A DNA stretch of 64,000 nucleotides from Desulfosudaceae bacterium. Its GTDB lineage: Bacteria; Desulfobacterota; Desulfobacteria; Desulfobacterales; Desulfosudaceae. This document shows positions 14,092 to 44,439 of this stretch, piece by piece. The notes under the pieces were generated by a model, which had not been told where the DNA came from, made no database searches, and saw only the letters and a list, made by a program, of their open reading frames with translations. Positions within the stretch are counted from its first letter, which is position 1. The number at the start of each line of letters is the position of its first letter. The position numbers were made by a program, and so were the translations under genes. The stretch spans positions 480,001-544,000 of the forward strand of contig CAXXDV010000001.1 in assembly GCA_963674745.2 (NCBI GenBank), given 5' to 3'.

Positions 14092-16164
14092 ATGAATACC
14101 CGTGTGAACACCGACTTACAGACAGGCAAGCAATCTCTTCTAGACGAAGCAGATCTTCAGGAAGAACTGAATGATATTTTTAAAAGCATTTCAGGTCAGA
14201 TTCCCGTTGATAAAATTCACTGGGTTCAGACCCATTATGATCTGCAGATGATGCGTATCATCGCGCAGGCGTCAGACACGGGCGGCGAAATAACCAATTT
14301 CATGTATGACGTTCCCGGGGATATCGTGGCGTTTTTGGACAGCGACGCCCTGCCTGAAATCCATATCATGAATCAACCGGAAATCGATCCCATTGGAAAA
14401 GAAGTTTCCCGGCGGGCCAAACTGTTTGACTGGTCCGCTATGTATATAAATTTTCGCAACCGTACGGATACGTTATCCTCGGTAGCGATTTATGCGGATG
14501 GAAAGAACCGGTATTCCCGAGAACATACCCGTCTGCTGAGGCCTTTTTCGGGGCGCCTTCAACGAATTACGGATATCCTCATTGCTGATAATGAAAGAAA
14601 AATACCCCATCCGACGCAGAAAGAACCCGTTGAAGACAAAAATGATTTTTTCCGACAGGTCACCCTGCGGCTATGCGGCAACCTTGACCTGGAAACAGGT
14701 GTTACCCAGTGTCTTCAATACCTCAGCCGTTTTATTCCGGCTGATGGACTGATTGTCAGGCAGTTGGAACCGGAAATGCAATCCGAACGCGTGCTTGCGG
14801 AAAGTTTCGGCGTATTTCATCAAAAGTCAGGGACCCTGATTCCATTGTTCACCAGAGAGCGCAATCCTTCCGACAGGCGGAGCCCCCCCAGGATACGCAT
14901 CATCAACCGGCCGGAACAATCTGTTTCGGTGCAATTCTACACCCAAATTTTCGGGCATGACTTATCATGTATCTCCATGCCCCTTATCGACAAAAAAAAC
15001 CCGATTGGTGTGGCCGTGCTGGGCCTGGAAGGCAAGGACCGCTACCGGGAAGAGCACATGCAGCTTTTTGCACTGCTCCATGACCCTTTTGTCCTGGCCC
15101 TTTCAAACAACATCAAACACCGGGAAATGATACGACTGAAGAACCTGATTGAAGAAGAGAAACAGGGCCTGGCAGAAGAACTGCACTACAATGCGGCTGA
15201 TACCATCATCGGCAGCAGCCTGGGGCTGGCGGGCGTCATGGAAAATGCCCGGCTTGTTGCCGAACAGGACAGCCCGGTTTTGCTGACCGGTGAAACCGGT
15301 ACCGGCAAGGAAATCATCGCCAATTTCATCCACCGCAACTCTTTACGAAAAGACGGCCCCTTCATCAAGGTCAATTGCGGCGCCATACCGGATACGCTGG
15401 TGGACAGCGAACTGTTCGGTCATGAAAGGGGGGCCTTCACCGGCGCGGGCACCCGGAAAAAGGGCCGTTTTGAAAGGGCCCACAAAGGGACAATTTTTCT
15501 GGACGAAATCGCTGAACTGCCTCTGGCCGCCCAGGTCCGCCTGCTCCGGGTGCTGCAGCATAAAGTTATCGAGCGGGTTGGCGGTATGGAATCCATTTCC
15601 GTGGATATCCGTATTATTGCCGCCACTCATGGCAATCTGGAAGATCTGGTCGCGCATGGTCGGTTTCGGGAAGACCTGTGGTTTCGCCTGAATGTCTTTC
15701 CCATCCGGATTCCGCCGTTGCGATCAAGGCGGTCGGATATTCCGGCCCTGGTAGATTATTTTATTGAAAAAAAGTCCCTTGATTTGAAGTTTCACACCAG
15801 GCCGCTCCTGTCTGTTGATGCAATGGAACGGTTGACCGCTTATAACTGGCCGGGCAATGTCCGCGAACTGGAGAATGTCGTTGAAAGGGAATTGATACTC
15901 AGCAGGGGCGAGGCCCTGACATTTCAAAACATCAACCCCCAACCATCAGGCAATGATTCTCCGGGCAGTGCGGTTTCAAAAAATGATGTTTTGGGGCTGG
16001 ATGATTTTTTTGCCCGACACGTCAAAAAAGTCCTGGCCATGTGTAACGGCAAAATTAACGGCCCGGGCGGAGCAGCAGAATTGCTGAACATGAAACCCAA
16101 CACGCTCCGGAACAGGATGAAGAAACTGGGGATTCCTTACGGCGTAACAAAAGCTAAAAATTAA
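14092..16164 (+). CDS. sigma54-dependent activator (bEBP), type A, pair 1; GAF-like x2 + AAA + HTH (FhlA-like)
   Basis: GETGTGKE, GAFTGA, FLDEI, WPGNVRELEN, C-terminal GAAELL..KPNTLRNRMKKLGI. Confidence 0.95.
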   Translation: MNTRVNTDLQTGKQSLLDEADLQEELNDIFKSISGQIPVDKIHWVQTHYDLQMMRIIAQASDTGGEITNFMYDVPGDIVAFLDSDALPEIHIMNQPEIDPIGKEVSRRAKLFDWSAMYINFRNRTDTLSSVAIYADGKNRYSREHTRLLRPFSGRLQRITDILIADNERKIPHPTQKEPVEDKNDFFRQVTLRLCGNLDLETGVTQCLQYLSRFIPADGLIVRQLEPEMQSERVLAESFGVFHQKSGTLIPLFTRERNPSDRRSPPRIRIINRPEQSVSVQFYTQIFGHDLSCISMPLIDKKNPIGVAVLGLEGKDRYREEHMQLFALLHDPFVLALSNNIKHREMIRLKNLIEEEKQGLAEELHYNAADTIIGSSLGLAGVMENARLVAEQDSPVLLTGETGTGKEIIANFIHRNSLRKDGPFIKVNCGAIPDTLVDSELFGHERGAFTGAGTRKKGRFERAHKGTIFLDEIAELPLAAQVRLLRVLQHKVIERVGGMESISVDIRIIAATHGNLEDLVAHGRFREDLWFRLNVFPIRIPPLRSRRSDIPALVDYFIEKKSLDLKFHTRPLLSVDAMERLTAYNWPGNVRELENVVERELILSRGEALTFQNINPQPSGNDSPGSAVSKNDVLGLDDFFARHVKKVLAMCNGKINGPGGAAELLNMKPNTLRNRMKKLGIPYGVTKAKN

Positions 16165-16175
16165 CGGAACACATT

Positions 16176-18251
16176 ATGAAAAGCGCGCCGGATACTGTTT
16201 TAGACCAGATAAAAGAACGTGTCGCTTCAGACGGGGATATCTACGAGGCGGTTTACACGTATTACGAATATATTCAAAAACACCTTCCCGCGGAACGAAT
16301 GAGCCTGAGCCTGCTTGACTTTGATCAGAAAAACATACAAATCATTGCCCAGGCCAGTAAAACCGGAAGTGAAAAAACAGATTTCATCGTTTCAACCCCA
16401 AAAGAGCTACCGGCTTTTTTTAATTTGAACGATCTGCCTGAAATTTACATGATCAACGAACCGGAAACCGACCCGCTCGGACGGAATATGATTAAGCGAA
16501 CAGGTTTCAAGGACTGGTCTCTGATAGGCGTGCTGATCAGGGAACAGGCAGTTGCTTACGGTGTGATATTTTTTACGGTTAAAGGGAAAAACGGGTATTC
16601 TGAAAAACATGCCGCCTTGCTCACGGATTTATATGATTCGCATAAATGGCTTCTGGACGCTGTTATCAGGGAACATAAGAACAAACCCGGCGGCCTTGAT
16701 CAAAAAGAGACCGTAGAAGACAAATATGAATTCTTCCGCCAGGTCACCCGGCGGTTATGCGGGCACCTTGACATGGAGGTCGGTGTTCTGCATTGTTTTC
16801 AATACCTCAGCCGGTTCTTTCAGGCTTCCATGCTGTCCGTCCACAAACATCATGAAGAGAGTGATACAGATATCATCGGGGTCGGACCGACCACTTTTTT
16901 AAACTATTTCGATCCGGATATGATGGCCAGGGGTACAGAAAGCCTGAGCCCTGCGGAAAAAACATCGTCTCCCGAAACCGTGATCACCAATCGCCCCGAG
17001 CGCGACCCTACCCTGAATCGCACGGTAAAAAAATTCGGGGCCAACTGGTCGGCGATCACCATGTATCTTTCACATAAGCGGGTCCCGCTCGGCCTTGCCA
17101 ACCTCGTCACGGAAGGAAGAGATGCTTTTTCTGAGGAGCAAAGGGAGCTGTTTGCCATGCTCCATGACCCGTTTTCCCTGGCCCTTTCAAATCATATCAC
17201 ACACCGGGAAGTCATCCGGCTGAAAAACATCATCGAAGACGAGAAGAAAAACCTTCAGGAGGAATTGCATTTCTCCGGGGAAACCACCATTATCGGCGAA
17301 ACGTCGGGATTAAAGGGGGTCATGGACAGTGCCCGGGTTGTCGCCGGCCGGGAAAGCCCGGTTTTGCTGTCCGGTGAAACCGGCGTGGGCAAGGAAATCA
17401 TCGCCAATTTTATCCACCGGCAATCATCACGAAGAGACGCCCCCCTGATCAAGGTCAATTGCGGTGCCATCCCGGATACACTGGTCGACAGCGAACTGTT
17501 CGGCCATGAAAAAGGGGCCTTCACCGGCGCGGACACCCGAAAAAAAGGCCGTTTTGAACGGGCTGACGGCGGGACGGTTTTTCTGGATGAAATCGCGGAA
17601 CTGCCCCTTCCGGCCCAGGTCCGCATGCTGCGGGTCCTGCAAAATAAAACCATCGAACGGGTAGGAGGCACAGAGACCGTACCCGTGAATATCCGCATCA
17701 TCGCCGCCACCCACCGCAACCTGGAAGAAATGGTCGCTTCCGGCCTGTTCCGGGAAGACCTGTGGTTCCGGCTGAATGTCGTTCCCATCCATATCCCGCC
17801 CTTGAGAGCAAGACGGTCGGACATCCCGGCCCTTGTGGATTATTTTATTGAGAAAAAATCCCGGGAAATGACACTTCATGTCAATCCATCCCTGCCTGCC
17901 GATGCCATGGAGCGGTTGACTTCGTATGAATGGCCCGGCAATGTTCGTGAACTGGAGAACGTCATTGAAAGGGAGCTGATCCTGCAAAAAGGCGAGGCGC
18001 TCACGTTTGAGCACATCATTCCCGGGCCGACAAGCGGTAATACACAAGATAATAATACCATTCCGGAAGACGACGTTCTGGAAATGGACAAGGCCTTTGC
18101 CCGTCATATCAGAAACGTTCTGGGGCTTACGCAAGGTAAAATCAACGGCCCCGGAGGGGCAGCGGAATTACTGAAAGTTAAACCCAGCACCCTCCGCCAC
18201 CGCATGGACAAACTGGGAATCACCTATGGCTGGAAAAAAACAAAAAAATAA
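16176..18251 (+). CDS. sigma54-dependent activator (bEBP), type B, pair 1
   Basis: GETGVGKE, GAFTGA, WPGNVRELEN, HTH; 11-bp gap after partner. Confidence 0.95.
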   Translation: MKSAPDTVLDQIKERVASDGDIYEAVYTYYEYIQKHLPAERMSLSLLDFDQKNIQIIAQASKTGSEKTDFIVSTPKELPAFFNLNDLPEIYMINEPETDPLGRNMIKRTGFKDWSLIGVLIREQAVAYGVIFFTVKGKNGYSEKHAALLTDLYDSHKWLLDAVIREHKNKPGGLDQKETVEDKYEFFRQVTRRLCGHLDMEVGVLHCFQYLSRFFQASMLSVHKHHEESDTDIIGVGPTTFLNYFDPDMMARGTESLSPAEKTSSPETVITNRPERDPTLNRTVKKFGANWSAITMYLSHKRVPLGLANLVTEGRDAFSEEQRELFAMLHDPFSLALSNHITHREVIRLKNIIEDEKKNLQEELHFSGETTIIGETSGLKGVMDSARVVAGRESPVLLSGETGVGKEIIANFIHRQSSRRDAPLIKVNCGAIPDTLVDSELFGHEKGAFTGADTRKKGRFERADGGTVFLDEIAELPLPAQVRMLRVLQNKTIERVGGTETVPVNIRIIAATHRNLEEMVASGLFREDLWFRLNVVPIHIPPLRARRSDIPALVDYFIEKKSREMTLHVNPSLPADAMERLTSYEWPGNVRELENVIERELILQKGEALTFEHIIPGPTSGNTQDNNTIPEDDVLEMDKAFARHIRNVLGLTQGKINGPGGAAELLKVKPSTLRHRMDKLGITYGWKKTKK

Positions 18252-18332
18252 TCCCCAAATTCGCAGGTCCGCACGCAGTATCAGTTCCTTTAAGACCTGC
18301 TTGAGCCGTTCGGATAAGGAATAGCCCCGCAT

Positions 18333-19217
18333 ATGAAACGAAAAAAGATAATCATTGATACAGATCCTGCCATAGGCGTTTTTTTAAGAGATGTTGATGA
18401 TGCCCTGGCAATTTTGCTGGCAATTGCTTCCCCTGAAATTGAACTGGAAGGCATTACGATTAATTTTGGGAACGTGCCGTCTGAAAAGGGATATACCGTA
18501 GGCAAGCAGATACTGGCGGTCGCCGGGGTTGATATTCCAATTATACCGGGAGCCGCCTCCAGAAAATTGCTGGGCCGGCCAACACCGGCGGTAGAGCATT
18601 TGATTCAGACCGTAAATAGACATCCGGGGGAGATAACCCTGGTTGCTGTCGCGCCGTTGACGAATGTGGCGTCAGCCATGATGCTGGACAATACCTTTGC
18701 CGGGAACCTGAACGAACTTATTGTAATGGGCGGTGCCGTTAATTTTAAATTCTTCTCAACCTTTGGGGAATTGAATTTCCATTTAGACGGCCAGGCTGCC
18801 TCAATTGTTATGGCGGCGCCGTGTCACAAAACATTACTGACGATGGACCTCTGCTCCCAGGCTGTATTTACCCGGTCCCACTTAGCACAATTAAAAGGAA
18901 ATAAAACAGCAGTGTCGCAATTTCTGGCGCGCAACATTCCTTCATGGTTGACGCTCAACAGAATTGTATTTCGGAAAGGCGGCTTTTTCCCCTGGGATCC
19001 AATTGCAGTCGCCTGCGCAATTAATCCAGACCTGACGGACAAAAAACACTTTACCTTTGATGTCCAGGCACAAGGCATTCGAAGCGGCAGGATATATAAC
19101 CTTAAAGAACAGGCGGCGCAGGACGATACCGCAAACAGATATCCGGTTAATATTCCTCAGAGATTAGACAGCAAGCATTTTATGAAAATGCTTTTAGACC
19201 ATTTATTGTCTTTGTAA
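18333..19217 (+). CDS. Inosine/uridine-preferring nucleoside hydrolase family protein
   Basis: IIDTDP...DVDDALA, APLTNVA, MGGA, ELNF. Confidence 0.88.
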   Translation: MKRKKIIIDTDPAIGVFLRDVDDALAILLAIASPEIELEGITINFGNVPSEKGYTVGKQILAVAGVDIPIIPGAASRKLLGRPTPAVEHLIQTVNRHPGEITLVAVAPLTNVASAMMLDNTFAGNLNELIVMGGAVNFKFFSTFGELNFHLDGQAASIVMAAPCHKTLLTMDLCSQAVFTRSHLAQLKGNKTAVSQFLARNIPSWLTLNRIVFRKGGFFPWDPIAVACAINPDLTDKKHFTFDVQAQGIRSGRIYNLKEQAAQDDTANRYPVNIPQRLDSKHFMKMLLDHLLSL

Positions 19218-19274
19218 AAAAACAAGGTTTTAAAGAGTTCCGCATCATTTCATGCAAAGACAAACAAGAAACCG

Positions 19275-20015: not shown

Positions 20016-20093
20016 GGCTTTCTCCTTGTGGTGGCGTCGTAAAAAGTCCGGTTTATGTTTTCTGCAATCAAATTTTACATACTCAAATAATTG

Positions 20094-20122
20094 TTGACAT
20101 GAATTTTTAAAATTGTTATGAT
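20094..20122 (+). promoter_or_regulatory. sigma70 promoter for MBL hydrolase
   Basis: TTGACA-N17-TATGAT with extended -10 TG; an opposing TTGACA lies on the minus strand at 20148-20153. Confidence 0.7.
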
Positions 20123-20176
20123 GAATTTAAACTATAAATAATATGTCTGTCAACTCTTATTTACAAGGAGCATATC

Positions 20177-21394: not shown

Positions 21395-21422
21395 CCCGAA
21401 AGGTCGGAGAGAGATGTCCGGG

Positions 21423-22826
21423 TTAACGGGTTGCACGGGTTTCCCGGTAATCGCTCAGCGCTTTTCGTATGTTGTCGATCAGGTCTTTGGGAAACTGCTT
21501 TCCGGCCAGTTTCCGCTCGACCGCTCTTCCCGCTGTTTCAATGGCCTGTTGATCTTCGGGTGACAAGGTCACGGCCTTTATACCACATTTGGTTTCAAAG
21601 GCTTCCAGGCTTTTTGCTTCGTATCTTCTGATCATCTCCTTCCACTCAGGTTCAACAGCGTTTAGTTCGGAGACAAACATTTCCAGGATATTTTTAGCGC
21701 AGGTATCAGAGACACCTATATCTTTTCGAAGCCGGGCCCGTATGCTGGAGCTGACCAGCACCGACCCCGGAACATAAAAAACCGAGGGCTTAAGGTAGAA
21801 ATTCGTGTACTGGTAGGTCTGCATGCCCAGCATATAGGCCGGGGGCGACAGATTAACGATTTCCTGGCCCGGGCGGAAAAAGCTAATAACATCATCCATA
21901 GATACAGACGTTACGTTGCTTATGCCCAGCGCCTGATAAAAAGGAGGCTCTATGTCGTTGTAAAGCATTAAAATCTTCTCTTTTTTCAAGTCCGCCAGGC
22001 CGGATACCCTGTTTACTGAAAACCAATATAAATTACCGGTATCAACAAGGGCACACAGAATGTAGCCGTTTTCCTCAAAAGCCCGGTCCAGCGTTTTTCT
22101 GAACGTTTTTAAGATGAAATCAACTTCTTCGTAATTCTTGAACAGGCCGGGCAGCGACAATACAGAAGAAACGGAAGATGCTTCCAGCATACCAATGACG
22201 GTGCAGCCGCAACTGTCGAGCTGGCCGTCTTTCATTTTTTCCAGAACATCCAGGTCGTCTCCCATGACCCCGCCGCCGTAAATTTTGATTAAAACTTTTC
22301 CCCCGGTCAGCTTCTTAATTCTGGGAAAAATGATGTTTTCGGGCACATTCATCCAGGGTGTGCCCGGGGGCGCAAGGGTGCCGACTGTCAACACCATCGG
22401 CTCTTTGTTCTGGAGTGGCGACGTGGCAGCACGCCAAATGATGATTTTAGCCGCTTCCCACGCCATGTGGGGGGAAAAGAGGGGGTTAAAGCGCTCTGAA
22501 ACATCGTTTAAAACGTATCGGGATGTTTGATAGCGATTTAGTAAAGGCATGGCCGTCTTTTCAATCATGCTTTCAAGGACCGCTGTTGTTATGGTGCCGT
22601 TTGACAGCATGGCTTTCATTGCCTGCTGGCGCTGCTTTAATTCAACAGGAAATTCCCGACCGGTCCACAATGCAATCAGGCTGTCCTGCAGTATGCTTTG
22701 AAATTTTTCGGCGGTTTTTTCTTCTGCCGCGGCAGCAAGGGGTTGTCCGGCGATAGCCGCAATTGTAAGCGCGGCAATGATTGTCAACAGGCTTGTCTTG
22801 AATGAATACAAACGAATAAAAAACAT
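21423..22826 (-). CDS. dctP: TRAP transporter substrate-binding protein DctP (TPAT-like) with N-terminal extension
   Basis: Signal peptide; GTLAPPGTPW, KIYGGGVMGD, LPGLFKNYEEVD. Confidence 0.8.
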   Translation of the reverse strand: MFFIRLYSFKTSLLTIIAALTIAAIAGQPLAAAAEEKTAEKFQSILQDSLIALWTGREFPVELKQRQQAMKAMLSNGTITTAVLESMIEKTAMPLLNRYQTSRYVLNDVSERFNPLFSPHMAWEAAKIIIWRAATSPLQNKEPMVLTVGTLAPPGTPWMNVPENIIFPRIKKLTGGKVLIKIYGGGVMGDDLDVLEKMKDGQLDSCGCTVIGMLEASSVSSVLSLPGLFKNYEEVDFILKTFRKTLDRAFEENGYILCALVDTGNLYWFSVNRVSGLADLKKEKILMLYNDIEPPFYQALGISNVTSVSMDDVISFFRPGQEIVNLSPPAYMLGMQTYQYTNFYLKPSVFYVPGSVLVSSSIRARLRKDIGVSDTCAKNILEMFVSELNAVEPEWKEMIRRYEAKSLEAFETKCGIKAVTLSPEDQQAIETAGRAVERKLAGKQFPKDLIDNIRKALSDYRETRATR

Positions 22827-25668: not shown

Positions 25669-25784
25669 AGCATTAATCGTGCCAGAATAATTATATATAA
25701 ATTTCAGGCTGTTAACATTTGAGCCAAAACAATCTTGCCAAATAGCAAAAGCTTTCTTACCAAATAGCAGAGGCTCTCATATAT
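25669..25784 (-). promoter_or_regulatory. sigma54 promoter cassette P2 (foldase-lipase operon)
   Basis: TGGCACGATTAATGCT (25669-25684); TTTCAGGCTGTTA at 25702; CCAAATAGCA at 25738 and 25760. Confidence 0.88.
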
Positions 25785-28869: not shown

Positions 28870-28985
28870 AGCATTAATCGTGCCATAAAAATTACCCATA
28901 AAATTCAGAATGTTAATATTTAAACCAAAACAATACTGCCAAATAGTAAAACTCTTCTTGCCAAATAGTAAAACCTTCTCTATAT
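28870..28985 (-). promoter_or_regulatory. sigma54 promoter cassette P3
   Basis: TGGCACGATTAATGCT (28870-28885); ATTCAGAATGTTA at 28903; TGCCAAATAGTAAAAC direct repeat with 22-bp period. Confidence 0.88.
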
Positions 28986-29007
28986 GATAGATTCAAGGAT
29001 GATAATT

Positions 29008-31083
29008 ATGAAAAAACAAAATCTTCTTGATGAAAGCGCCCTTCAGGAAGAGCTGGGTGATATTTTCAGCTGTCTTTCAAGTCAGATTCCCGCGAATACG
29101 ATCAATTGGGTCCAGTCGCATTTTGATCCGATGGTCATAAGGATTATCGGACAGGCGTCAGACACCGGCGGAGAAAAGACCAATTTCATTTACGACGTCC
29201 CCGAAAAGATCGCAGCGATTTTTCAAAGTGACGCCCTGCCCGAAATCCACCTGATAAACCACCCGGAAAGAGATCCCCTGGGAAAAGAGATATCCAGGCG
29301 CGCCAAACGCTTTGACTGGTCGGCCCTGGTTATTAATTTTCGAAACCGCTCGGATACGCTATGCTCGGCAATAGTCTATGCGGATGGAAAGGACCGGTAC
29401 AAGGAAGAACATATCCGCCTGGTCACCCCCCTTAAGATGCGCCTTCAACAAGTTATGGACGTCCTCATTGCGGACAATGAAAAGAAAGGCCTGAACCCCA
29501 CTGAAAAAGAACCGGTTAAGGACAAAAATGAATTTTTTCGCCAGGTCACCCTGCGATTATGCGGCCATCTTGACCCTCAAACCGGTGTTTCCAAATGCCT
29601 CCAATACATCAGCCGCTTTATGCCGGCCGACGCGCTCTTTGTCAGACAGCTGGAGCCGGAATTTCAATCGGAACGCGTGCTCGCGGAAAGTTTTGGTGTA
29701 TTTCATCAACAGACAGGAACCCTGATTCCTCTGGTCCCGGAAAAACGGAACACCGCCCTCAGGCGGGGGGCCGACAGGCGAAGAATCCCCCGGATACGCA
29801 TTATCAACCAGCCGGACCAATCTGCCGCCACGCAGCCCTATGTGCAAATATTCGGCAATGACTTTTCGTGTATTTCCATGCCGCTTATCCATGGGAAAAA
29901 GCCCATTGGCCTGGCCGTACTGGGCCTGGAAGGCAGGGACCGCTACCGGGAAGCGCATCTGCAACTTTTCTCGCTGCTTCATGATCCGCTTGTCCTGGCC
30001 CTGTCAAACAACATCAAACACCGGGAAGTCATCCGGCTGAAAAACCTGATCGAGGAGGAAAAAACAGACCTGGCCGAAGAGCTGCATTACACGGCGGCAG
30101 ACACCATTATCGGCGGCAGCCTGGGCCTGGAGGCCGTCATGGAAAAGGCCCGCCTTGTCGCTGATCAGGACAGTCCGGTGTTGCTGTCCGGCGAAACCGG
30201 CACGGGTAAAGAAATCATCGCCAATTTTATCCATCAGAAGTCCGCGCGGAAAGACGGCCCCTTCATCAAGGTCAATTGCGGTGCGATACCGGATACACTG
30301 GTGGACAGCGAACTGTTCGGTCATGAAAAGGGCGCATTCACCGGCGCAGACGCCCCCAAAAAGGGCCGCTTTGAAAGGGCTGACAGGGGAACGATTTTTC
30401 TGGATGAAATTGCCGAATTGCCCCTGGCCGCCCAGGTCCGCCTGCTGCAGGTACTGCAGCATAAAATAATCGAGCGCGTCGGGGGTACGGACGCCAAATC
30501 CGTCGATATCCGTATTGTCACCGCCACCCACCGCAACCTGGAAGAACTGGTCGCAAAGGGCCGATTCCGTGAAGATTTGTGGTTCCGGCTGAATGTTTTC
30601 CCCATACAGATCCCCCCCCTGCGATCAAGGACAATGGATATCCCGGCCCTGGTGGATTATTTCATTGACAAAAAGTCGCTTGACTTGAAGCTTCACACCA
30701 AACCGTCCCTGAGTCCGGACGCAATGAAGCGGTTGATGTCCTATGAATGGCCGGGAAACGTCCGTGAACTGGAAAACGTCGTTGAAAGAGAATTGATCCT
30801 GAACAAGGGAGAAGCCCTCACGTTTCATCATATCAACCCCCGGCAAACAAGTGACGGGGAAACCGACGATGTCATGACAGAAGAGAATATCCTGTCCCTT
30901 GATGAAGTTTTTACCCGTTACGTTAAAAAAGTTCTGGGCCTGTGCGACGGTAAAATCAGCGGCCCGCACGGCGCCGCGAAAATGCTTCAGGTAAACCCGA
31001 GCACGCTCCGCAACAGGTTGAAAAAAATGGGAATCCCCTACGGTTGGAACCCAAAAAAACCGCTTAATCGGGATACGCAATGA
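29008..31083 (+). CDS. sigma54-dependent activator (bEBP), type A, pair 2
   Basis: Same architecture as 14092; GAFTGA; ATG 29008 has AAGGA RBS (alternative start 28984). Confidence 0.95.
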   Translation: MKKQNLLDESALQEELGDIFSCLSSQIPANTINWVQSHFDPMVIRIIGQASDTGGEKTNFIYDVPEKIAAIFQSDALPEIHLINHPERDPLGKEISRRAKRFDWSALVINFRNRSDTLCSAIVYADGKDRYKEEHIRLVTPLKMRLQQVMDVLIADNEKKGLNPTEKEPVKDKNEFFRQVTLRLCGHLDPQTGVSKCLQYISRFMPADALFVRQLEPEFQSERVLAESFGVFHQQTGTLIPLVPEKRNTALRRGADRRRIPRIRIINQPDQSAATQPYVQIFGNDFSCISMPLIHGKKPIGLAVLGLEGRDRYREAHLQLFSLLHDPLVLALSNNIKHREVIRLKNLIEEEKTDLAEELHYTAADTIIGGSLGLEAVMEKARLVADQDSPVLLSGETGTGKEIIANFIHQKSARKDGPFIKVNCGAIPDTLVDSELFGHEKGAFTGADAPKKGRFERADRGTIFLDEIAELPLAAQVRLLQVLQHKIIERVGGTDAKSVDIRIVTATHRNLEELVAKGRFREDLWFRLNVFPIQIPPLRSRTMDIPALVDYFIDKKSLDLKLHTKPSLSPDAMKRLMSYEWPGNVRELENVVERELILNKGEALTFHHINPRQTSDGETDDVMTEENILSLDEVFTRYVKKVLGLCDGKISGPHGAAKMLQVNPSTLRNRLKKMGIPYGWNPKKPLNRDTQ

Positions 31084-33158
31084 AGAACAAGCCGGATATT
31101 GTTTCAAACCAGGTCAAACAGCATGTCGCTTCCGGCGGGGATATCTATGAGGCGGTGCACGCCCATTTCGATTCTTTTCAAAAATATCTTCCCGCGGAAC
31201 GAATGAGCCTGTGTATGCTCGATTTTGAACAGAAAAACCTACGAATCATTGCCCAGGCCAGTAAAACGGGCGGTGAAAAAACAGATTTTAACATTCCGGT
31301 GCCCGAAGAGCTCCTGGCTGCTTTTAATTTGGACGACCTGCCTGAAATTTACATGGTCAATGAACCGGAATCAGACCCGCTCGGGCAGAATATTATCAAG
31401 CGATCGGGCTTCAAAAACTGGTCCCTGATAGGCATGCGGATTAAGAATCAGGAAGTCGCATACGGCGCCATATTTTTTACGACCAACGGCAAAAACAGGT
31501 ATACGGATAAACATGCCGCTCTGCTCTCAGATTCATATGATGCACATGAATGGTTTCTGAAGACTGTTGTCAAGGACCATGGGGACAAAACCGGCGGCCT
31601 TGATCAAAAAGAAACGGCGGAAGATAAATATGAATTCTTCCGTCAGGTCACCCGGCGGTTATGCGGACACCTTGATATGGAAACCGGTGTTCTCCATTGT
31701 TTCCAATATCTCAGCCGCTTTTTTCAAGCGTCCATGCTGTCCGTCCACAAGCATCACAAGTCGGATGATACCGATATTATCGGGGTCGGACCTACCCATT
31801 TTTTTAATTATTTCGATCCCGGTATGATCGCCAGGGATACAGAAAGCCACAGTCCGAGGGAAATAACGATCGCCCCCAAAACAGTCATTATCAACAACCC
31901 CGAAAACGATCCTACCCTGAAACGGGCTTTAGACATGTTCGGAAGCAACTGGTCGTCGATTACCATGTATCTTTCTCACAAGCGGGTCCCGCTCGGTCTT
32001 GCATCTATTGTCACGGAAGGGAGAGACGCTTTTTCAGAGGCGCACAGAAAACTATTCGCCATGCTCCATGACCCGTTTGCCCTGGCGCTTTCCAACCATA
32101 TCAAACACCGGGAAGTCATCCGGCTGAAAAACACCATTGAAGATGAAAAAAAGAACATTCAGGATGAGTTACATTTCTCCAGGGAAGTCACCATTGTCGG
32201 CGGCACTTCAGGCTTAAAGGGGGTCCTGGAAAGTGCCCGGGTTGTCGCCCGTCGGAACAGCCCGGTACTATTGTCAGGAGAGACGGGTGTGGGCAAAGAA
32301 ATCATCGCCAATTTCATCCACCATCAATCTTCACGAAAAAGCGGCCCCTTGATCAAAGTCAATTGCGGCGCCATACCGGACACCCTGGTGGACAGCGAAC
32401 TGTTCGGTCATGAGAAAGGGGCTTTCACCGGCGCTGAGGCCCGAAAAAAAGGCCGTTTTGAAAGGGCCGACGGCGGTACGATCTTTCTGGATGAAGTCGC
32501 GGAACTGCCCCCCCCGGTCCAGGTCCGCATGCTGCGGGTCCTGCAGAATCAAATCATCGAGCGGGTCGGCGGGACAGGGTCTATACCCGTTAATATCCGG
32601 ATCATTGCCGCCACCCACCGCAACCTGGAAGAATTGGTCGCCGCCGGCAGATTCCGGGAAGACCTGTGGTTCCGTCTGAATGTGTTTCCCATCCATATCC
32701 CCCCCCTGCGATCCCGGCGATCGGACATTCCGGCACTGGTAGATTTCTTCATTGATAAAAAATCCCGCGAAATGAATTTCCATGTTGTACCGTCGCTTTC
32801 TCCGGATGCAATGAAGCGCCTTGTCGCGTATGAATGGCCGGGGAATATCCGCGAACTGGAAAATGTTATTGAAAGGGAACTGATCCTGAAAAAGGGCGAA
32901 CTGCTCACCTTTGAGAGTCTGATCCCCTCGCGCCCGGCAAACAACCCCCTGGATAATGTAATGACAAAAGACGATGTCCTGCCCCTTGATGAGATCTATA
33001 CCCGTCATATCAGAAAAGTCCTGGAGATAACCGGCGGAAAGATCAGCGGCCCGGGCGGTGCGGCGGAAAAGCTGAAAATAAAACCGGGGACCCTCCGCAA
33101 ACGGATGGACAAACTGGGAATTGATTACGGGTGGAAGAAACAGGATAAAACGACGTGA
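31080..33158 (+). CDS. sigma54-dependent activator (bEBP), type B, pair 2
   Basis: ATGA overlap with partner; GETGVGKE, GAFTGA, HTH. Confidence 0.95.
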   Translation: MKNKPDIVSNQVKQHVASGGDIYEAVHAHFDSFQKYLPAERMSLCMLDFEQKNLRIIAQASKTGGEKTDFNIPVPEELLAAFNLDDLPEIYMVNEPESDPLGQNIIKRSGFKNWSLIGMRIKNQEVAYGAIFFTTNGKNRYTDKHAALLSDSYDAHEWFLKTVVKDHGDKTGGLDQKETAEDKYEFFRQVTRRLCGHLDMETGVLHCFQYLSRFFQASMLSVHKHHKSDDTDIIGVGPTHFFNYFDPGMIARDTESHSPREITIAPKTVIINNPENDPTLKRALDMFGSNWSSITMYLSHKRVPLGLASIVTEGRDAFSEAHRKLFAMLHDPFALALSNHIKHREVIRLKNTIEDEKKNIQDELHFSREVTIVGGTSGLKGVLESARVVARRNSPVLLSGETGVGKEIIANFIHHQSSRKSGPLIKVNCGAIPDTLVDSELFGHEKGAFTGAEARKKGRFERADGGTIFLDEVAELPPPVQVRMLRVLQNQIIERVGGTGSIPVNIRIIAATHRNLEELVAAGRFREDLWFRLNVFPIHIPPLRSRRSDIPALVDFFIDKKSREMNFHVVPSLSPDAMKRLVAYEWPGNIRELENVIERELILKKGELLTFESLIPSRPANNPLDNVMTKDDVLPLDEIYTRHIRKVLEITGGKISGPGGAAEKLKIKPGTLRKRMDKLGIDYGWKKQDKTT

Positions 33159-37949: not shown

Positions 37950-38090
37950 CGTAACGCTCTCCTTTAACGCATTTTAAAAAAAGAAGAATAATTTCAGCGG
38001 CCTTTTTTGTCAACAAAAAATGAACTTCCCGGTGGTGGGACAAATCTGTAATATAAGATGGCGTTTTTCATTTTTATCTGGAGGGCTGAA

Positions 38091-38234: not shown

Positions 38235-38333
38235 CTTAGCCTTCCAATTGCCTTAAGAGGGCTGAAGTCCTCCGCTATATCTACATAGTCAATAATAAAC
38301 GGCCGTGGCGCTCGTTATCCATTGGCAGGGAGA

Positions 38334-38374
38334 AATAACACAGGCGCCCCTCAAGATGAGGCGCCTGTGTTATT
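38334..38374 (-). terminator. Terminator hairpin after C45 hydrolase
   Basis: 15-bp stem AATAACACAGGCGCC/GGCGCCTGTGTTATT. Confidence 0.7.
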
Positions 38375-38395
38375 GACAATTACTGCTCCGTACCT

Positions 38396-39895
38396 TTATT
38401 CCAACACTAATGTGGTTGCGCCCTGGCCGAATTTCGGCCCGGCAAAGGTGGTCATTTTCAGGTTGGTCAGGTCAAAAAGAGTGGTGCTTTGGTGGACCGA
38501 ACTGTTCGGGCCCTGGCCATCGGCAGTATACATCCAGTTAATAAAGTCGAGCGCCTTGTTGTAATCATATGTGCCGTAATCCTTCTTGAGCAGAGGGATC
38601 ATTTTGTCATAGCGTCTTTTGGAATCGCTATCCACATAGGTGCCGGTAAGCGAGTTCATATTAAGCGCCAGAAAATGGTTTGTCTGTATCAGAGCATCTC
38701 CATAGGTTTCCTGCTGGTCAACACCATATAAAATGGGTACAAGGGAATTCTGCCGATGGTTCAAGTACCGGCAAGCGTAATTGTGCGCCGACACCTCCAG
38801 GGACACGCCGCCCCGGTTGGCCCCTTGCCCGTCGGCAATGGCATATATCCAGGAAGCACCCCGCTTGGATTTTTCGATCATCGAAACGGCCTCGGGCAAC
38901 TCATTGGCCTTTTCCATGACCCAGCGGGCGGTCAGCAGGCATCCCATACCGACATCACCGGGCACACAATCAAAGGCCGGCACCATGTCCATGCCGATGC
39001 CAAGGCCTTTTTCATTCATGGCGGCGATGCACCCTACCAGTCCGGCCACACCGACATTGATCACCCGGTTTTTGTCCTTGCCGCAGGTCTCGATAATAAC
39101 CGGGTGGTCGGAAAACCCCTTGCCGCCGAACATGAAGTCCCGGCCAAGATAGAGGTTTCCGGTCTTGGTGGCGTTGCCGTCCAGGATATGCGCGTTGCAA
39201 GACAGGCTAAGGCTGTCAAGCAGCTCCCCGGTTTTAACAAGCGTGACCATAATCGGATAGCCGGCGCTTAAGAAGGCATCAAAACCCACATTGAGAAGCA
39301 GGACATCTTCGTAAGGAAGATCTATCCCTCTTGCCCGGGCGCCGTCAGAAATACCGCGCATTTCGTCCCTGTATTCTTTTGGAATATACTGTGAATTGAA
39401 CAATGCGATTTGCTTGAAAGTGAAAAGCAGTATATCCGCGAGCGACGTATCGGGAAAATTCGAGATATCCATACCCAGAGATTCCAGGAGAACTTCCGCT
39501 ATCGGTTTTAAAAATATATTTACATCGATACCTGTATTCCCGCCTATCATGCTGGTGCCGAGATCTAAGTAGAAATCTTCGGCTGCAACCGCCTTGCACT
39601 TTTCCGGAATCAGATACCCTTGCTGGTAGCCCATTTCATATCCGCTGCCTTCCAGGTGAAGGAAGGGCTGTTTATGTCCCGTATCCGTGATGATATATTC
39701 CAGATAGCCTTTTCCGCCGGGTGCGTACGTGCGATCGACGTGGAGGCCGGGCCCAGGGCCGTCGACGACGGGCTGGGGTGGTGGTGGTGGCGGGGGTTTG
39801 GGTGCAAATGCAAATGCAGTGGTTGCCTGAAAAAACAGACACAGGGTAATCATTAATAAAACAAACAGCTTACCAGACAAACATTTTTTCCTCAT
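38396..39895 (-). CDS. Secreted C45/Ntn-hydrolase (acid ceramidase/NAAA-like autoproteolytic amidase), copy 1
   Basis: LHLEGSGYEMGYQQG, EMRGISDGA, S|CNA nucleophile, GRDF, AMNEKGL, QTNH; 29-aa signal + poly-Pro. Confidence 0.82.
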   Translation of the reverse strand: MRKKCLSGKLFVLLMITLCLFFQATTAFAFAPKPPPPPPPQPVVDGPGPGLHVDRTYAPGGKGYLEYIITDTGHKQPFLHLEGSGYEMGYQQGYLIPEKCKAVAAEDFYLDLGTSMIGGNTGIDVNIFLKPIAEVLLESLGMDISNFPDTSLADILLFTFKQIALFNSQYIPKEYRDEMRGISDGARARGIDLPYEDVLLLNVGFDAFLSAGYPIMVTLVKTGELLDSLSLSCNAHILDGNATKTGNLYLGRDFMFGGKGFSDHPVIIETCGKDKNRVINVGVAGLVGCIAAMNEKGLGIGMDMVPAFDCVPGDVGMGCLLTARWVMEKANELPEAVSMIEKSKRGASWIYAIADGQGANRGGVSLEVSAHNYACRYLNHRQNSLVPILYGVDQQETYGDALIQTNHFLALNMNSLTGTYVDSDSKRRYDKMIPLLKKDYGTYDYNKALDFINWMYTADGQGPNSSVHQSTTLFDLTNLKMTTFAGPKFGQGATTLVLE

Positions 39896-39979
39896 TCTTT
39901 CATCCCCCTACCTGAATAATGTTGCTGTTATGGTTGCTTGCAAAAGAGCAAGGCAACCTTTTATTATTTTAATCTGTAT

Positions 39980-40096
39980 AGCATTAATCATGCCGAAAAA
40001 ATTATTCCATAATATTCAACAGGTTGCTATTTTCACAGCCCCCGGGCTTCGAAATATGAAAGAATTAACTGTGAAATATGAAAAGTTGCCATATAA
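39980..40096 (-). promoter_or_regulatory. sigma54 promoter cassette P4
   Basis: CGGCATGATTAATGCT (39980-39995); ATTCAACAGGTTG at 40014; GAAATATGAAA at 40051 and 40073. Confidence 0.85.
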
Positions 40097-40119
40097 TAGA
40101 AAATCAGATTGGATACGCT

Positions 40120-42186
40120 ATGAAAATTCGACCCGACAAACTTTTACAGCAGGTGCAAAAGCGCGTCTTTGATGAAGACGACCTTGAGGGGGGGCTGCTT
40201 GATATCTATAAATGCATTTCAGATGTGGTGCCCCTGGAAAGGGTGCTGCTGCTCCATTTCGATCATGATCGGAAGATGTGCCGGGTTATCGCCCATGCCA
40301 TTGGGGTGGGTGCCGAAGAAACCAATTTCATGTTCGACGTTCCCGATGAGATCATTGAACTGTTATGCAGCCAGGCCATGCCCGAGACCCACATCATCAA
40401 CCAGCCGGACAAGGACCCCCTGGGCGCAGAGGTAATGAAGTACAGCGGCATGTCCGACTGGTCGGCATTTCTTGTAAATTTCAAAAACGATACCAACACC
40501 TATGGCGCGGCTGTGATCCTGACTGACGGCAGGGATAAGTTCAAGCAAGATCATTCTTACCGGATCACGCGTTTAAAAGCCCCCCTGCAGCTGGCACTGG
40601 ATACCGCCATCACAGCAAACGAAAAGCGGATTCAGCCGCCCTTGTGGAAAGAACCTGTGGCGGATAAAAATGAATTTTTCCGCCAGGTCACCCGGCGTTT
40701 ATGCGGCCACCTTGACCTGAAAACCGGTGTCGATCTGTGCAATCAATACCTCAGCCGCTTTTTGCCGGCTGACGCGCTTATGGTCATGCAGGTCGAAACG
40801 GGCCTGAAATCCGAACGTATTCATGCCGAGGCCTTCGGGATGCTGCAGCTGCACACCCAGCCTGTTGTCCCCTGGGCACCGGGAAGACCGGCCCCTGATG
40901 CCTTCAGGGAAGGGTTTGAGGCACACATCATCAATGAACCTGAGGACTATCCTGAGATGCGCCCCTATTTCAACCTTTTCGGTGATGACTGGTCGGCGAT
41001 TATCATGCCCCTCGTCCACGAGGACCGGCCGTTTGGTGTCGCGATAATGGCGCTGGTCGGTAAAAACCGCTATACAGAAACGCACAAGCAACTGTTTTCA
41101 TTACTCCATGACCCGTTTGCCCTGGCCCTCTCAAACAACATCAAGCACCGCGAGGTCATCCGGCTGAAAAACATCATCTCGCAGGAGAGAAAAGACCTTC
41201 AGAAAGAATTGAATTTCCCCGCAGCAGGCACTATCGTCGGTGCCAGGCATGGCTTAAGAGATGTCATGGACAGTGCCCGCCTTGTTGCCGAACAGGACAG
41301 CCCGGTATTGCTGACAGGAGAAACCGGCGTGGGCAAGGAAATTATCGCCAATTTCATCCATCAGCAGTCATCGCGAAGAGACGGCCCTTTTATCAAGGTG
41401 AATTGCGGTGCCATACCGGATACGCTGGTGGACAGTGAGCTGTTCGGTCATGAGAAAGGGGCTTTCACCGACGCCCGAAGCCGGAAAAAGGGCCGCTTTG
41501 AACGGGCCAGCAGGGGAACCATTTTTCTGGATGAAATCGGCGAACTGCCCCTGCCGGCCCAGGTGCGCCTGCTCCGGGTGCTGCAAAACAAAGTCATTGA
41601 ACGCGTTGGCGGCACCGAAGCCATACCCGTTGACATCCGCATTATCGCCGCCACCCACCGCAACCTGGAAGAACTGATGGCTTCCGGGAAGTTCAGAGAA
41701 GACCTGTGGTTCCGCCTGAATGTATTTCCCATCCGGATCCCTCCCCTGCGTTCAAGAAAAGAGGATATCCCGGCCCTGGCAGACCACTTTATCGAGAAGA
41801 AATCCTTTGAATTACGATTCCAGGACCAGCCGACCCTTTCGACAAACGCCATGCGAAGGTTGACCGCTTATGATTGGCCGGGAAACGTCCGCGAACTGGA
41901 GAACGTGATTGAAAGGGAATTGATCCTGAACAAAGGCGGGCGGCTGACGTTTCAGCATGTCAGCCCCGAACCGCCGAAAGACAACCCTTCTGAACCGGCC
42001 ATTAAGGAAGATAATATCCTGTCCCTGGATGAGGTCTTTGCCCGTCATGCAAAAGAAGCGCTGACCCTTTCCGGCGGAAGGGTTGAAGGTCCGGGTGGTG
42101 CCTCGGAATTGCTGGGCATTAAACCCGGCACCCTGCGCAGCAGAATGAAAAAACTCGGGATTCCCTACGGCAGGAATAAGACATGA
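40120..42186 (+). CDS. sigma54-dependent activator (bEBP), type A (more divergent), pair 3
   Basis: GETGVGKE, GAFTDA variant loop, WPGNVRELEN, HTH; ATG 40120 preferred since 40078 lies inside the UAS. Confidence 0.93.
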   Translation: MKIRPDKLLQQVQKRVFDEDDLEGGLLDIYKCISDVVPLERVLLLHFDHDRKMCRVIAHAIGVGAEETNFMFDVPDEIIELLCSQAMPETHIINQPDKDPLGAEVMKYSGMSDWSAFLVNFKNDTNTYGAAVILTDGRDKFKQDHSYRITRLKAPLQLALDTAITANEKRIQPPLWKEPVADKNEFFRQVTRRLCGHLDLKTGVDLCNQYLSRFLPADALMVMQVETGLKSERIHAEAFGMLQLHTQPVVPWAPGRPAPDAFREGFEAHIINEPEDYPEMRPYFNLFGDDWSAIIMPLVHEDRPFGVAIMALVGKNRYTETHKQLFSLLHDPFALALSNNIKHREVIRLKNIISQERKDLQKELNFPAAGTIVGARHGLRDVMDSARLVAEQDSPVLLTGETGVGKEIIANFIHQQSSRRDGPFIKVNCGAIPDTLVDSELFGHEKGAFTDARSRKKGRFERASRGTIFLDEIGELPLPAQVRLLRVLQNKVIERVGGTEAIPVDIRIIAATHRNLEELMASGKFREDLWFRLNVFPIRIPPLRSRKEDIPALADHFIEKKSFELRFQDQPTLSTNAMRRLTAYDWPGNVRELENVIERELILNKGGRLTFQHVSPEPPKDNPSEPAIKEDNILSLDEVFARHAKEALTLSGGRVEGPGGASELLGIKPGTLRSRMKKLGIPYGRNKT

Positions 42187-42257
42187 TACACATATTTCAT
42201 GGACTGTTCTGAAATCCTGATCATCGGCCCATTGCAAGGCGCAAGGCATGCATACAC

Positions 42258-42345
42258 GTAGGGGCACCCCCCTGTGGGTGCCCTTCTATCGGGCGGCCAC
42301 GGGGGGGTGCCCTTCTATCGGGCGGCCACGGGGGGCCGCCCCTAC
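42258..42345. repeat. GTAG-type REP doublet (REPIN) with internal 29-bp tandem duplication
   Basis: GTAGGGGCACCCCCCTGTGGGTGCCC ... GGGCGGCCACGGGGGGCCGCCCCTAC; GGGTGCCCTTCTATCGGGCGGCCACG at 42276 and 42305. Confidence 0.75.
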
Positions 42346-42363
42346 TAATAATTGGTGAACGAT

Positions 42364-44439
42364 ATGATGAAAACTGAGCCGGACGTTTTAAACCGGATAA
42401 TGCAGCGTGCAGCCGCAGGCGGGGACGTCTACGAAGCGCTGTTCGCTTTTTATGGTTATCTTCGCCGGATACTGCCCGTCGATCGAATGAGCCTGGTTCA
42501 ATTTGATTTTGACAGGCTTATACTGCGATCTGTTGCCCAGTCCTCTGACACGGGATGTGAAAAAACGAATTTTCAGTTTCATCTGCCCGCTGAAATTGTT
42601 GACCTCATTCAAAATGAAAGTCTGCCACGAGCACACACGATCAATGAACCGGAAATGGATCTGATCGGTAAGAATATAGCCGTAAGGTTTCGTCTTTCGG
42701 ACTGGTCCATGATGAGCATAAGGATTAAGGATCAGGCCGTCGTTTACGGGGCAATTTTTTTTGTAACAAAAGGCCGGAACAAATATACTGAAAATCATAC
42801 CCGCCTGTTAACCGGTCTATATGATAAGCATAAATGGTTTCTTGAGGCTGTAATCAAGGATCATGACGAAACATCGGCCGGGCCCGGACAAAAAGAACCC
42901 ATACCCGGTAAATATGAATACTTCCGTCAGGTCACCCGCCGATTGTGCGGCCATCTTGATCTTGAGGCCGGGGTTTTGCATTGCCTTCAATACCTCAGCC
43001 GGTTTATGCCGGTTGCTACACTTGCCGTTCACAAGCATTATACGGGCCCGGGGGACGACTTTATCGGGGTCAGCCCGAACGGATTTTTCGACTATTTCAA
43101 CCCTGAATTTATGACCCGGTCGACCGAGCACCTGAGCCCATCAGGAAAGACGGATAATCCCAAAGTCACCATCATCAATCAGCCCGAACGCAATCCCGCC
43201 ATGAAACATAATGTAAAACTGTTCGGCCCCAACTGGTCGGCGATTACCATGTTTCTCCAGCACAACAGGGATCCGCTCGGCATGGCTTCGATCATCACCG
43301 AAGGGGAAAACGCCTATACCGAAGAACACCGGCGCCTGTTTGCAATGCTCCATGATCCTTTTGCCCTGGCGCTTTCAAATTACAACAAACATCACGAAAT
43401 CATCCAGCTGAAAAACATCATCGAAGAAGAGAAGAAAGACCTTCAGGAAGAGCTCAAGCGCTCCGGAGCGTATACCATTATCGGCGAAAATTCGGGCCTG
43501 AAATCGGTAATGGAAAACGCCCGCCTTGTCGCCGGGCAGGACAGCCCGGTTTTGCTGACAGGAGAGACCGGTTCCGGCAAGGAAATCATCGCCAATTACA
43601 TCCATCAGCAATCATCGCGAAAGGACGGCCCCTTAATCAAGGTCAATTGCGGCGCCATTCCGGACACGCTGCTGGACAGTGAACTGTTCGGCCATGAAAA
43701 AGGCGCCTTTACGGGTGCAGAGAACCGTAAAATCGGCCGCTTTGAAAGGGCCGACAGAGGGACGATCTTTCTGGATGAAATCGCCGAGCTGTCGCTGCCG
43801 GCCCAGGTCCGCATGCTCCGGGTACTCCAGTATAAGGTTATCGAGCGTGTCGGCGGAACGGAAGCCATACCCGTTGACGTCCGCATCATCGCCGCCACCC
43901 ACCGCAACCTGGAAGCACAGACGGCATCCGGGCAATTCAGGGAAGACCTCTGGTTCCGCCTGAACGTGTTTCCGATCCGGATCCCCCCGTTGCGTTCAAG
44001 AAAGGCGGACATGCCGGACCTGGTCAACTATTTTATCGAAAAAAAATCCCGTGAATTGAAACGCCAGGATCCCCCCCCCCTGTCTCCTGATGCCATGGAA
44101 CGGTTGAGCGCGTATGAATGGCCGGGAAACGTGCGTGAACTGGAGAATGTGGTTGAAAGAGAATTGATTCTAAGCCGGGGAGAAGTACTCACGTTTCAGA
44201 GCATTACCCCCGGGCCGTCAAAAGGCAGTTCTCCGGACACGGCGATTTCCGCTGAGGACTTTTTGAAAATGGATGAGGTCTACGTCCGTCACATTGAAAA
44301 AGTGCTGGCTTATACAAACGGCAAGGTCAGCGGCCCCGGGGGCGCTGCCGAACTGCTGAAAATAAACCCCGCTACCCTGCGAAACCGGATGAAAAAACTG
44401 GGGATCCCCTACGGCTGGGAAAAGGAAAAAACAACCTAA
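42364..44439 (+). CDS. sigma54-dependent activator (bEBP), type B, pair 3
   Basis: GETGSGKE, GAFTGA, HTH; N-terminus GGDVYEAL matches the other B types. Confidence 0.94.
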   Translation: MMKTEPDVLNRIMQRAAAGGDVYEALFAFYGYLRRILPVDRMSLVQFDFDRLILRSVAQSSDTGCEKTNFQFHLPAEIVDLIQNESLPRAHTINEPEMDLIGKNIAVRFRLSDWSMMSIRIKDQAVVYGAIFFVTKGRNKYTENHTRLLTGLYDKHKWFLEAVIKDHDETSAGPGQKEPIPGKYEYFRQVTRRLCGHLDLEAGVLHCLQYLSRFMPVATLAVHKHYTGPGDDFIGVSPNGFFDYFNPEFMTRSTEHLSPSGKTDNPKVTIINQPERNPAMKHNVKLFGPNWSAITMFLQHNRDPLGMASIITEGENAYTEEHRRLFAMLHDPFALALSNYNKHHEIIQLKNIIEEEKKDLQEELKRSGAYTIIGENSGLKSVMENARLVAGQDSPVLLTGETGSGKEIIANYIHQQSSRKDGPLIKVNCGAIPDTLLDSELFGHEKGAFTGAENRKIGRFERADRGTIFLDEIAELSLPAQVRMLRVLQYKVIERVGGTEAIPVDVRIIAATHRNLEAQTASGQFREDLWFRLNVFPIRIPPLRSRKADMPDLVNYFIEKKSRELKRQDPPPLSPDAMERLSAYEWPGNVRELENVVERELILSRGEVLTFQSITPGPSKGSSPDTAISAEDFLKMDEVYVRHIEKVLAYTNGKVSGPGGAAELLKINPATLRNRMKKLGIPYGWEKEKTT

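Follow-up and report, generated by a model that had tools for sequence, protein, structure and literature searches.

We analysed a stretch of 64,000 nucleotides from a Desulfosudaceae bacterium (GCA_963674745.2, contig CAXXDV010000001.1, positions 480,001 to 544,000), in which three tandem pairs of genes encode paralogous sigma-54 activators, also called bacterial enhancer-binding proteins (bEBPs). This stretch is referred to as the window (G000:C1:480001-544000, where G000 is the own genome, C a contig and, further below, L a locus). In each pair a gene of type A is followed by a gene of type B. We found that the proteins group by type and not by pair, and the trees indicate that the A-then-B module arose once and was then copied as a unit, with five copies in this genome. 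Judging from the alignments, A and B differ mainly in their GAF sensors and not in the AAA+ ring. From these sequences, functional co-assembly of A and B appears to be an evenly balanced proposition, and a mutual, obligate dependence as in HrpR/HrpS appears unlikely.

A conserved A-then-B gene module

On the plus strand of the window lie 1A (14092..16164, 690 amino acids) and 1B (16176..18251, 691 amino acids), 2A (28984..31083, 699 amino acids) and 2B (31080..33158, 692 amino acids), as well as 3A (40078..42186) and 3B (42352..44439, 695 amino acids counted from a TTG start). Three adjacent pairs of paralogues of about 690 amino acids are far beyond chance. All six open reading frames (ORFs) encode complete activators with the same domain order, namely a tandem GAF sensor, an AAA+ domain and a C-terminal helix-turn-helix (HTH). 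The features that mark a bEBP were found in each of them: Sigma54_activat (PF00158; E 1e-67 to 1e-69), the Walker A motif GETGxGKE, the Walker B motif FLDE and the GAFTGA loop, which reads GAFTGA in five proteins and GAFTDA in 3A. AAA_lid_14 was also matched by all six. For the C-terminal HTH, the stretch GPGGAAELL..TLRxRMKKLGI is kept in all six proteins, with helices modelled at residues 661-679.

In an alignment of the six proteins, the A types begin with LDEADLQ, LDESALQ and FDEDDLE and share a second segment (SERVLAESFG in two, SERIHAEAFG in one), while the B types share GDIYEA (GDVYEA in one), RMSL in all three, and NYFDP (DYFNP in one). A sequence-only reading of this DNA had quoted these motifs together with Walker A and B, LLQVLQ in 2A and GAFTDA in 3A, and all of them are present in our alignment. 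That reading also assigned an HTH to all six proteins, which holds for the conserved stretch, whereas the Pfam model HTH_8 passes E<=0.001 solely for 3B (E 6e-5). Its description of the junctions was confirmed by direct reading of the sequence: the start of 2B overlaps the stop of 2A (ATGA, 31080-31083), and 1A and 1B are separated by 11 bp (16165-16175).

The start of 3A is probably the ATG at 40120 and not the one at 40078, because that is where the alignment with the other A proteins begins and because the enhancer-like repeats at 40047-40082 overlap the 40078 ATG. For 3B, ATG codons a few residues past the TTG line up with the starts of the other B proteins. Between 3A and 3B lies a GC-rich dispersed repeat (42260..42345, no strand assigned) with two tandem copies of a 29-nt unit, which has nine matches in the genome at up to three mismatches and resembles a small dispersed element of the REP (repetitive extragenic palindromic) type. 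Since the 165-bp gap is filled by these two copies, the ancestral spacing of pair 3 was shorter. A scan of this gap for promoters and terminators found none.

The count of three pairs in the sequence-only reading is right for the window, while the genome total is five. A whole-genome search gave 13 full-length members and one shorter relative with a single GAF domain; the full-length members form five A-then-B pairs and three solo members, S1, S2 and S3. Pair 4 (C1:576043-578142 and 578164-580239) is located 32 kb past the window end. Pair 5 (C3:2549279-2547210 and 2545294-2543231, minus strand) is split by an insertion sequence (IS), about 1.78 kb long, that encodes a DDE transposase (G000:C3:2545389-2547170, locus L016), located between 5B and 5A, and both activator genes are intact despite this insertion. 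The split is recent, because a second copy of the IS at C3:898420-900202 is 99.6% identical. Just downstream of 5B, genes for a glycyl-radical enzyme (906 amino acids) and its activase were found (L016:2143-5888, G000:C3:2538143-2541888). Solo S1 (G000:C3:2059626-2061383, L017:9626-11383, minus strand) is followed in convergent orientation by a gene for another kind of sigma-54 activator, one that carries a PAS sensor.

Altogether we found 11 pairs, always on the same strand and always with A before B. Five of them are in the own genome, three in genome G002, one in G007, one at L020, a locus of a metagenome-assembled genome, and one at L039, a metagenome contig; the conserved adjacency expected from the window is thus kept in other genomes. 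As in systems of the HrpRS type, adjacent paralogues occur in a fixed order across genomes. Each B-type gene with readable upstream DNA (11 of 11) is preceded by an A-type gene; one further B gene, 100 nt from a contig end, is outside this count. The family therefore occurs as paired A, paired B and solo proteins, and B was never solo among the loci with context. The stop of A and the start of B overlap as ATGA in four of the 11 pairs and are separated by 11 and 21 bp in two pairs and by 58, 118 and 165 bp in three; in one pair the ORFs overlap with an uncertain frame, and one pair is the IS-interrupted one. In the orthologue of pair 2 in G002 (L031:9500-9600), the A frame extends 71 nt beyond the conserved ATGA junction into B, which could reflect either an assembly error or a difference in frame towards the 3' end.

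A maximum-likelihood tree was calculated from 33 proteins, 14 of the own genome and 19 of other genomes with DNA context. The A clade comprises 18 rows (support 84/90 in the full-length tree) and the B clade 11 rows, which stay together with a support of 71/99.9 in the full-length tree and of 99 in a tree of the N-terminal domain only. A third clade (100/99) contains solo genes exclusively, of the S3 type. Forcing 1A and 1B together costs 640 units of log-likelihood and was rejected by the approximately unbiased test (p-AU 1.35e-67). The proposal that the A/B split is older than the multiplication of the pairs is borne out by these trees, and the grouping by pair that would have spoken against it gave way to a grouping by type across genera. 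Moreover, nine of the ten pairs represented there have matching topologies for A and B, an indication that whole pairs were duplicated. The exception is pair 1 of G002, where A falls inside the solo S1-type clade and B is the sister of 4B. Because these positions conflict, partners were swapped or B was lost at least once.

Full-length relatives were detected in six of 13 genomes of the own family, Desulfosudaceae, with G000 counted. In the 28 genomes examined from other families of the order no full-length relatives were found, only single-GAF relatives of about 520 amino acids, and 400 more genomes across the phylum gave no match at E<=1e-60 with four candidates scored per genome. Among 5.8 billion clustered proteins there were 50 matches at E<=1e-20, about 45 of which span most of the sensor; the source names on relatives are Desulfosudis oleivorans, Desulfosudaceae, Desulfobacterales, Thermodesulfobacteriota and Smithella sp. 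Overall, the A-then-B module is confined to a narrow group of Desulfosudaceae-like bacteria, where it occurs beside solo relatives. The shorter relative (G000:C3:305538-307130; about 520-535 amino acids elsewhere) has the second GAF only and is widespread in the order. This short form may be ancestral, from before the gain of the first GAF domain (GAF-1).

Sensors and motors of A and B

Pfam gave just a weak GAF_2 match for the N-terminus, in its second domain, and a profile of the N-terminal sequence found a single weak match (E 0.25) among the sequences of the PDB. The double-GAF N-termini proposed before were nevertheless confirmed by a fold search. AlphaFold2 modelled full-length 1A with a mean predicted local distance difference test score (pLDDT) of 78.6 and residues 1-371 with a pLDDT of 75.5, and both models contain two alpha/beta domains with a long helix after each. 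The top Foldseek matches of this N-terminal model were 1ykd (CyaB2), 3lfv, 6x88, 3ibj and phytochrome GAF-PHY, and the matches include GAF-A/B of PDE5, PDE6 and PDE2 (E 2e-10 to 1e-7, probability 1.0); the template modelling score is only about 0.3 because the domain orientations differ. The N-terminus is thus predicted to consist of two consecutive GAF folds of the CyaB2 and PDE2, 5 and 6 type, joined by long helices.

No string of the sensor is more conserved than R-L-C-G-H-L-D ... C-x-Q-Y-x-S-R-F, which lies at the start of the second GAF domain (GAF-2), at residues 193-214 of 1A. In the window this string of 1A is at about 14668-14733, and the same columns are found in all relatives. Among 45 sequences C195 is invariant and C207 nearly so. 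A role in metal binding or in redox chemistry would be conceivable for this site.

None of the curated NCBIfam equivalog cut-offs for FhlA, NifA and NorR was reached by these proteins. The FhlA model (NF011958) is colinear with residues 182-683 of 1B, and membership was rejected at 321.3 and 322.7 bits against a cut-off of 830. NifA (TIGR01817) gave 341-348 bits against a cut-off of 528.85 and NorR (NF003451) 323-325 bits against 476; both of these matches span the AAA+ part only.

Mean identities were calculated for the ten paired proteins of the own genome. In GAF-1, A and B are 30% identical, compared to 40% among A and 47% among B proteins, and in GAF-2 the values are 44% for A-B, 60% for A-A and 59% for B-B. 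In the AAA+ domain, A-B identity is 74% and A-A as well as B-B identity 76%. In the HTH stretch, A and B resemble each other closely. Twelve positions are type-specific, ten of them in the sensor and the other two at residues 377 and 644.

Promoters, enhancer repeats and target genes

Each of the three clusters carries sigma-54 promoter-like sites with enhancer-like repeats, all on the minus strand. The site TGGCACGGTTAATGC (13952..13966) is divergent from 1A and belongs to enoyl-CoA hydratase and acyl-CoA dehydrogenase genes; upstream of it are two direct enhancer-like repeats, CCGTATTTGGTAA and CCATATTTGGCAA (14019..14053), 22 bp apart. Divergent from 2A, the site TGGCACGATTAATGC (28871..28885) lies before a carboxylesterase gene, with two direct repeats (TACTATTTGGCA twice, 28937..28974) again 22 bp apart. 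A second promoter-like site of the pair 2 cluster (25670..25684), for a lipase chaperone, a hydrolase and a DctP-like protein, has the two direct repeats TGCTATTTGGCAAG and TGCTATTTGGTAAG (25734..25769), spaced by 22 bp like those at 28937-28974. Finally, CGGCATGATTAATGC (39981..39995) is divergent from 3A and precedes a gene for an AAT/C45-like protein, with the direct repeats TTCATATTTCGAAG and TTCATATTTCACAG (40047..40082) 22 bp apart. Within each promoter the two repeats are almost the same. Pair 1 would hence control enoyl-CoA hydratases and an acyl-CoA dehydrogenase, and pair 3 an AAT/C45-like protein. For pair 2 the targets would be a carboxylesterase and an alpha/beta hydrolase, together with a lipase chaperone and a DctP-like protein.

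In the window, the string GGCAYGRTTAATGC is matched exactly at six places, each of them on the minus strand. With up to two mismatches 10 matches were observed, a number reached by none of 100 shuffles. When up to one mismatch is allowed, TGGCAYGRTTAATGC occurs 12 times genome-wide, and seven of these occurrences are within 200 bp of the start of a family member. At 11 of these 12 sites, sequences read by eye show two (once three) direct repeats of approximately TTYCNTATTTNNCA with a spacing of 22-23 bp, located 40-55 bp upstream of the -24 element. The AT-rich stretch that separates repeats and promoter contains YAA-N4-TTGAAT, which from the IHF consensus we take to be IHF-like. Pairs 1 and 3 of the window have one divergent promoter each, in the order repeats, IHF-like site and TGGCAYGRTTAATGC. 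The genome also encodes rpoN, the DNA-binding domain of which was found at G000:C3:2479664-2480140 (208.8 bits), so that both sigma-54 and candidate sigma-54 promoters of target genes are present. A sigma-54-like string beside 5B was discarded, as it is without the -12 GC.

More sigma-54 promoters of the same build are present in the window at 63339-63353 and 63979-63993 (minus strand), and also at 59760-59774. Their repeats, CCCTATTTAACAG and TTCCTATTTCGCA, are closer to those before pair 4 than to those of pairs 1-3. Because of this resemblance of the repeats, pair 4 may control genes 32 kb away. The DctP-like proteins of the target clusters have 464-475 amino acids (window 21423-22826 and 51029-52444; L015:3228-6125) and bear an unexplained N-terminal extension, since the part that matches DctP does not begin until about residue 160.

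Proposed co-assembly, its alternatives and known activator pairs

In the reading that we favour, A and B would be co-transcribed and often translationally coupled, would bind the same two-repeat enhancer and would co-assemble there as mixed rings. The output of the promoter would then depend on the states of two different sets of sensors, and poisoning of the ring by an unliganded subunit, as with RedR1/RedR2, would make this output AND-like. Since B was never seen alone and the motors could almost replace each other, mixed assembly is the simplest expectation, and mixed rings that integrate two signals are plausible by analogy with the RedR1/RedR2 precedent. From the fact that B was never found alone, we infer that B depends on A. 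A-type proteins are probably also able to act alone, and the partnership is therefore likely preferential or asymmetric and not mutually obligate. A complex prediction of residues 1-371 of 1A with residues 1-371 of 1B, made from separate alignments and without controls, reached 0.29 against a mark of 0.32 and speaks neither for nor against co-assembly. A more specific version of co-assembly, which we hold to be improbable, is a dedicated two-input switch: A and B would pair via their divergent GAF domains and the mixed rings would fire only once both sensors have bound their ligands, which might be the two products released by ester hydrolysis. The copied modules would then give one genome at least five parallel switches that run a hydrolase and beta-oxidation regulon.

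The main rival explanation is that A and B are two independent homo-oligomeric activators encoded in one operon, each with its own ligand and acting on the same promoter (an OR gate) or on different promoters within its target cluster, with adjacency reflecting shared expression and joint duplication. This is possible, although we would not call it probable. A number of observations weigh against the co-assembly that we favour, and several of them are what independent activators would lead one to expect. A-like genes are solo at 11 loci, three in the own genome, two in G002 and one each in G007, G003, L022, L023, L040 and L043, a count that leaves out one truncated gene and three contigs too short to be judged. 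The S1-type solo clade is nested within the A clade (99/100), together with the A protein of pair 1 of G002. Both partners are complete and equally constrained: Walker A and B, arginine fingers, sensor II and HTH are intact in A and in B (one contig-truncated row is without the sensor II and HTH columns), and at 156 conserved AAA+ columns the paired proteins show 4.0 deviations per protein and the solo proteins 3.8. We therefore rejected the idea that one partner is a degenerate subunit, and since both partners keep the catalytic motifs and deviate like solo proteins, nothing forces dependence. There is also no co-evolved A/B signature in the AAA+ domain, where residue 377, near the domain start, is the sole type-specific position, and in the C-terminal DNA-binding domain A-B partners are 53% identical compared to 52% for non-partners, which is no signal. 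Moreover, the cluster of pair 2 has two promoters (25670 and 28871), leaving room for a division of labour. The solo genes share the two-repeat layout, which is also seen before pairs and solo genes elsewhere, and it follows that the two-repeat enhancer is a family trait; the idea that the two repeats are an A site and a B site was dropped, as solo genes have two repeats as well.

Against independent homo-oligomers, pairs 1 and 3 show a single promoter of this type, and B was not alone in any of the 11 readable cases. With AAA+ domains that are 74% identical, similar HTHs and one enhancer, a barrier to mixing is not visible, and for RedR1/RedR2 the hetero-oligomer was the favoured form (PMC10084136). 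The word obligate, which the sequence-only reading had attached to the hetero-oligomers, finds no support in these sequences, in view of the solo A-like genes, the nested solo clade, the intact state of both partners and the lone AAA+ position 377.

It is quite unlikely, in our estimation, that the roles within a pair are asymmetric, with one effector-responsive activator and the other protein serving as a modulator, either a constitutive helper or an anti-activator by which the first is tuned or gated. Such roles are known for RedR2 towards RedR1 and for VnfA3 towards VnfA1, and the occurrence of solo proteins among the A-like but not among the B types would agree with it. Sporadic changes point in the same direction: GAFTDA in 3A, LLQVLQ in 2A and 4A, GSFTGA in 5B and in one A protein of G002. 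Other scattered departures are ILLDE and ATQCN in 4B. In NorR, the change G266D retains sigma-54 contact and open complexes and escapes repression by the GAF domain, which makes the protein constitutive, while changes of the second glycine of GAFTGA reported to abolish activation are G219K and G266K and not G-to-D (PMC2941729). As GAFTDA in 3A may likewise escape GAF repression, the control of pair 3 could rest on 3B, and 3A was rejected as a dead subunit, the same change in NorR being functional (PMC2941729). However, the scattered changes are lineage-specific and absent from orthologues, with LLRVLQ in the 2A orthologue of G002 and GAFTGA in 5A, the sister of 3A, and both GAFTDA and GSFTGA are reported as natural in single activators of D. 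vulgaris (PMC4641369). Within each type, the sensors of A as well as those of B are well conserved, and the deviation counts do not differ between paired and solo proteins. The odd residues of 2A and 3A noted in the sequence-only reading accordingly lend no support to an obligate partnership, GAFTDA being no loss of function. That A and B are recent redundant duplicates with like functions is hardly credible: the same domain order and length would fit, but the low A-B identity in GAF-1 and GAF-2 does not, and the grouping by type across genera refuted it in the tree test.

Among known activators, the formate hydrogenlyase activator FhlA is the closest in architecture, with GAF-GAF, AAA+ and HTH in about 690 amino acids. 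FhlA acts as a single protein. Interacting bEBPs have been called rare, the examples being HrpR/HrpS, FleQ/FleT, RedR1/RedR2 and the VnfA paralogues (PMC9542535). HrpR/HrpS of Pseudomonas syringae resemble A and B in being adjacent paralogous sigma-54 activators of one operon, and as a co-evolved pair they serve a single promoter (PMC3105312, PMC9542535). They are described as being without N-terminal sensors (PMC9542535), whereas A and B bear tandem GAF domains and differ from HrpRS in this respect. Furthermore, co-dependence is an experimental finding for HrpRS and at most a possibility for A and B, and the module found here is multiplied five-fold and has solo A-like relatives. FleQ/FleT of Rhodobacter sphaeroides is a hetero-oligomeric sigma-54 activator of two paralogues, both reported to be without N-terminal regulatory domains (PMC9542535). 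A and B, on the other hand, are complete. FleT is also not known to carry a DNA-binding domain.

The statement of the sequence-only reading that known co-dependent pairs lack sensors applies to HrpRS and FleQ/FleT, and fails for RedR1/RedR2 and VnfA1/VnfA3, which are sensor-bearing (PMC9542535, PMC10084136). RedR1/RedR2 of Aromatoleum anaerobium carry a GAF plus a PAS domain, share the same sigma-54 promoters and preferentially form hetero-oligomers, which are active only with both components active (PMC10084136). Each RedR activates alone in some forms. The two RedR proteins arose by recent duplication and hardly differ, and not at all in their central domains, in contrast to A and B, which are old paralogues with 30-44% identity in the sensor. 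VnfA1/VnfA3 (with VnfZ) of Azotobacter vinelandii are GAF-bearing paralogous bEBPs too, for which the same promoters, interaction and co-activation have been reported (PMC9542535). Unlike A and B, the VnfA proteins need the accessory VnfZ and have a single GAF with a metal-related role. The available parts of this source do not describe a conserved A-then-B gene module for VnfA (PMC9542535).

In our searches of open-access literature, neither this family nor an A/B module of this kind came up. What is new is the combination of an old A/B divergence, a conserved synteny, tandem GAF domains on both partners and duplication of the whole module. If A and B act independently, they would be ordinary tandem paralogous regulators. 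If they co-assemble, this would be a naturally modular case, with an old syntenic pair, different tandem-GAF sensors and five unit copies in one genome, and the solo relatives in the same genomes would be built-in controls. Hence the family makes it possible to ask whether mixed AAA+ rings are used for signal integration, how paralogous rings stay insulated with motors that are 74-76% identical, and which ligands are recognised by the GAF domains in this so far uncharacterised hydrolase regulon.

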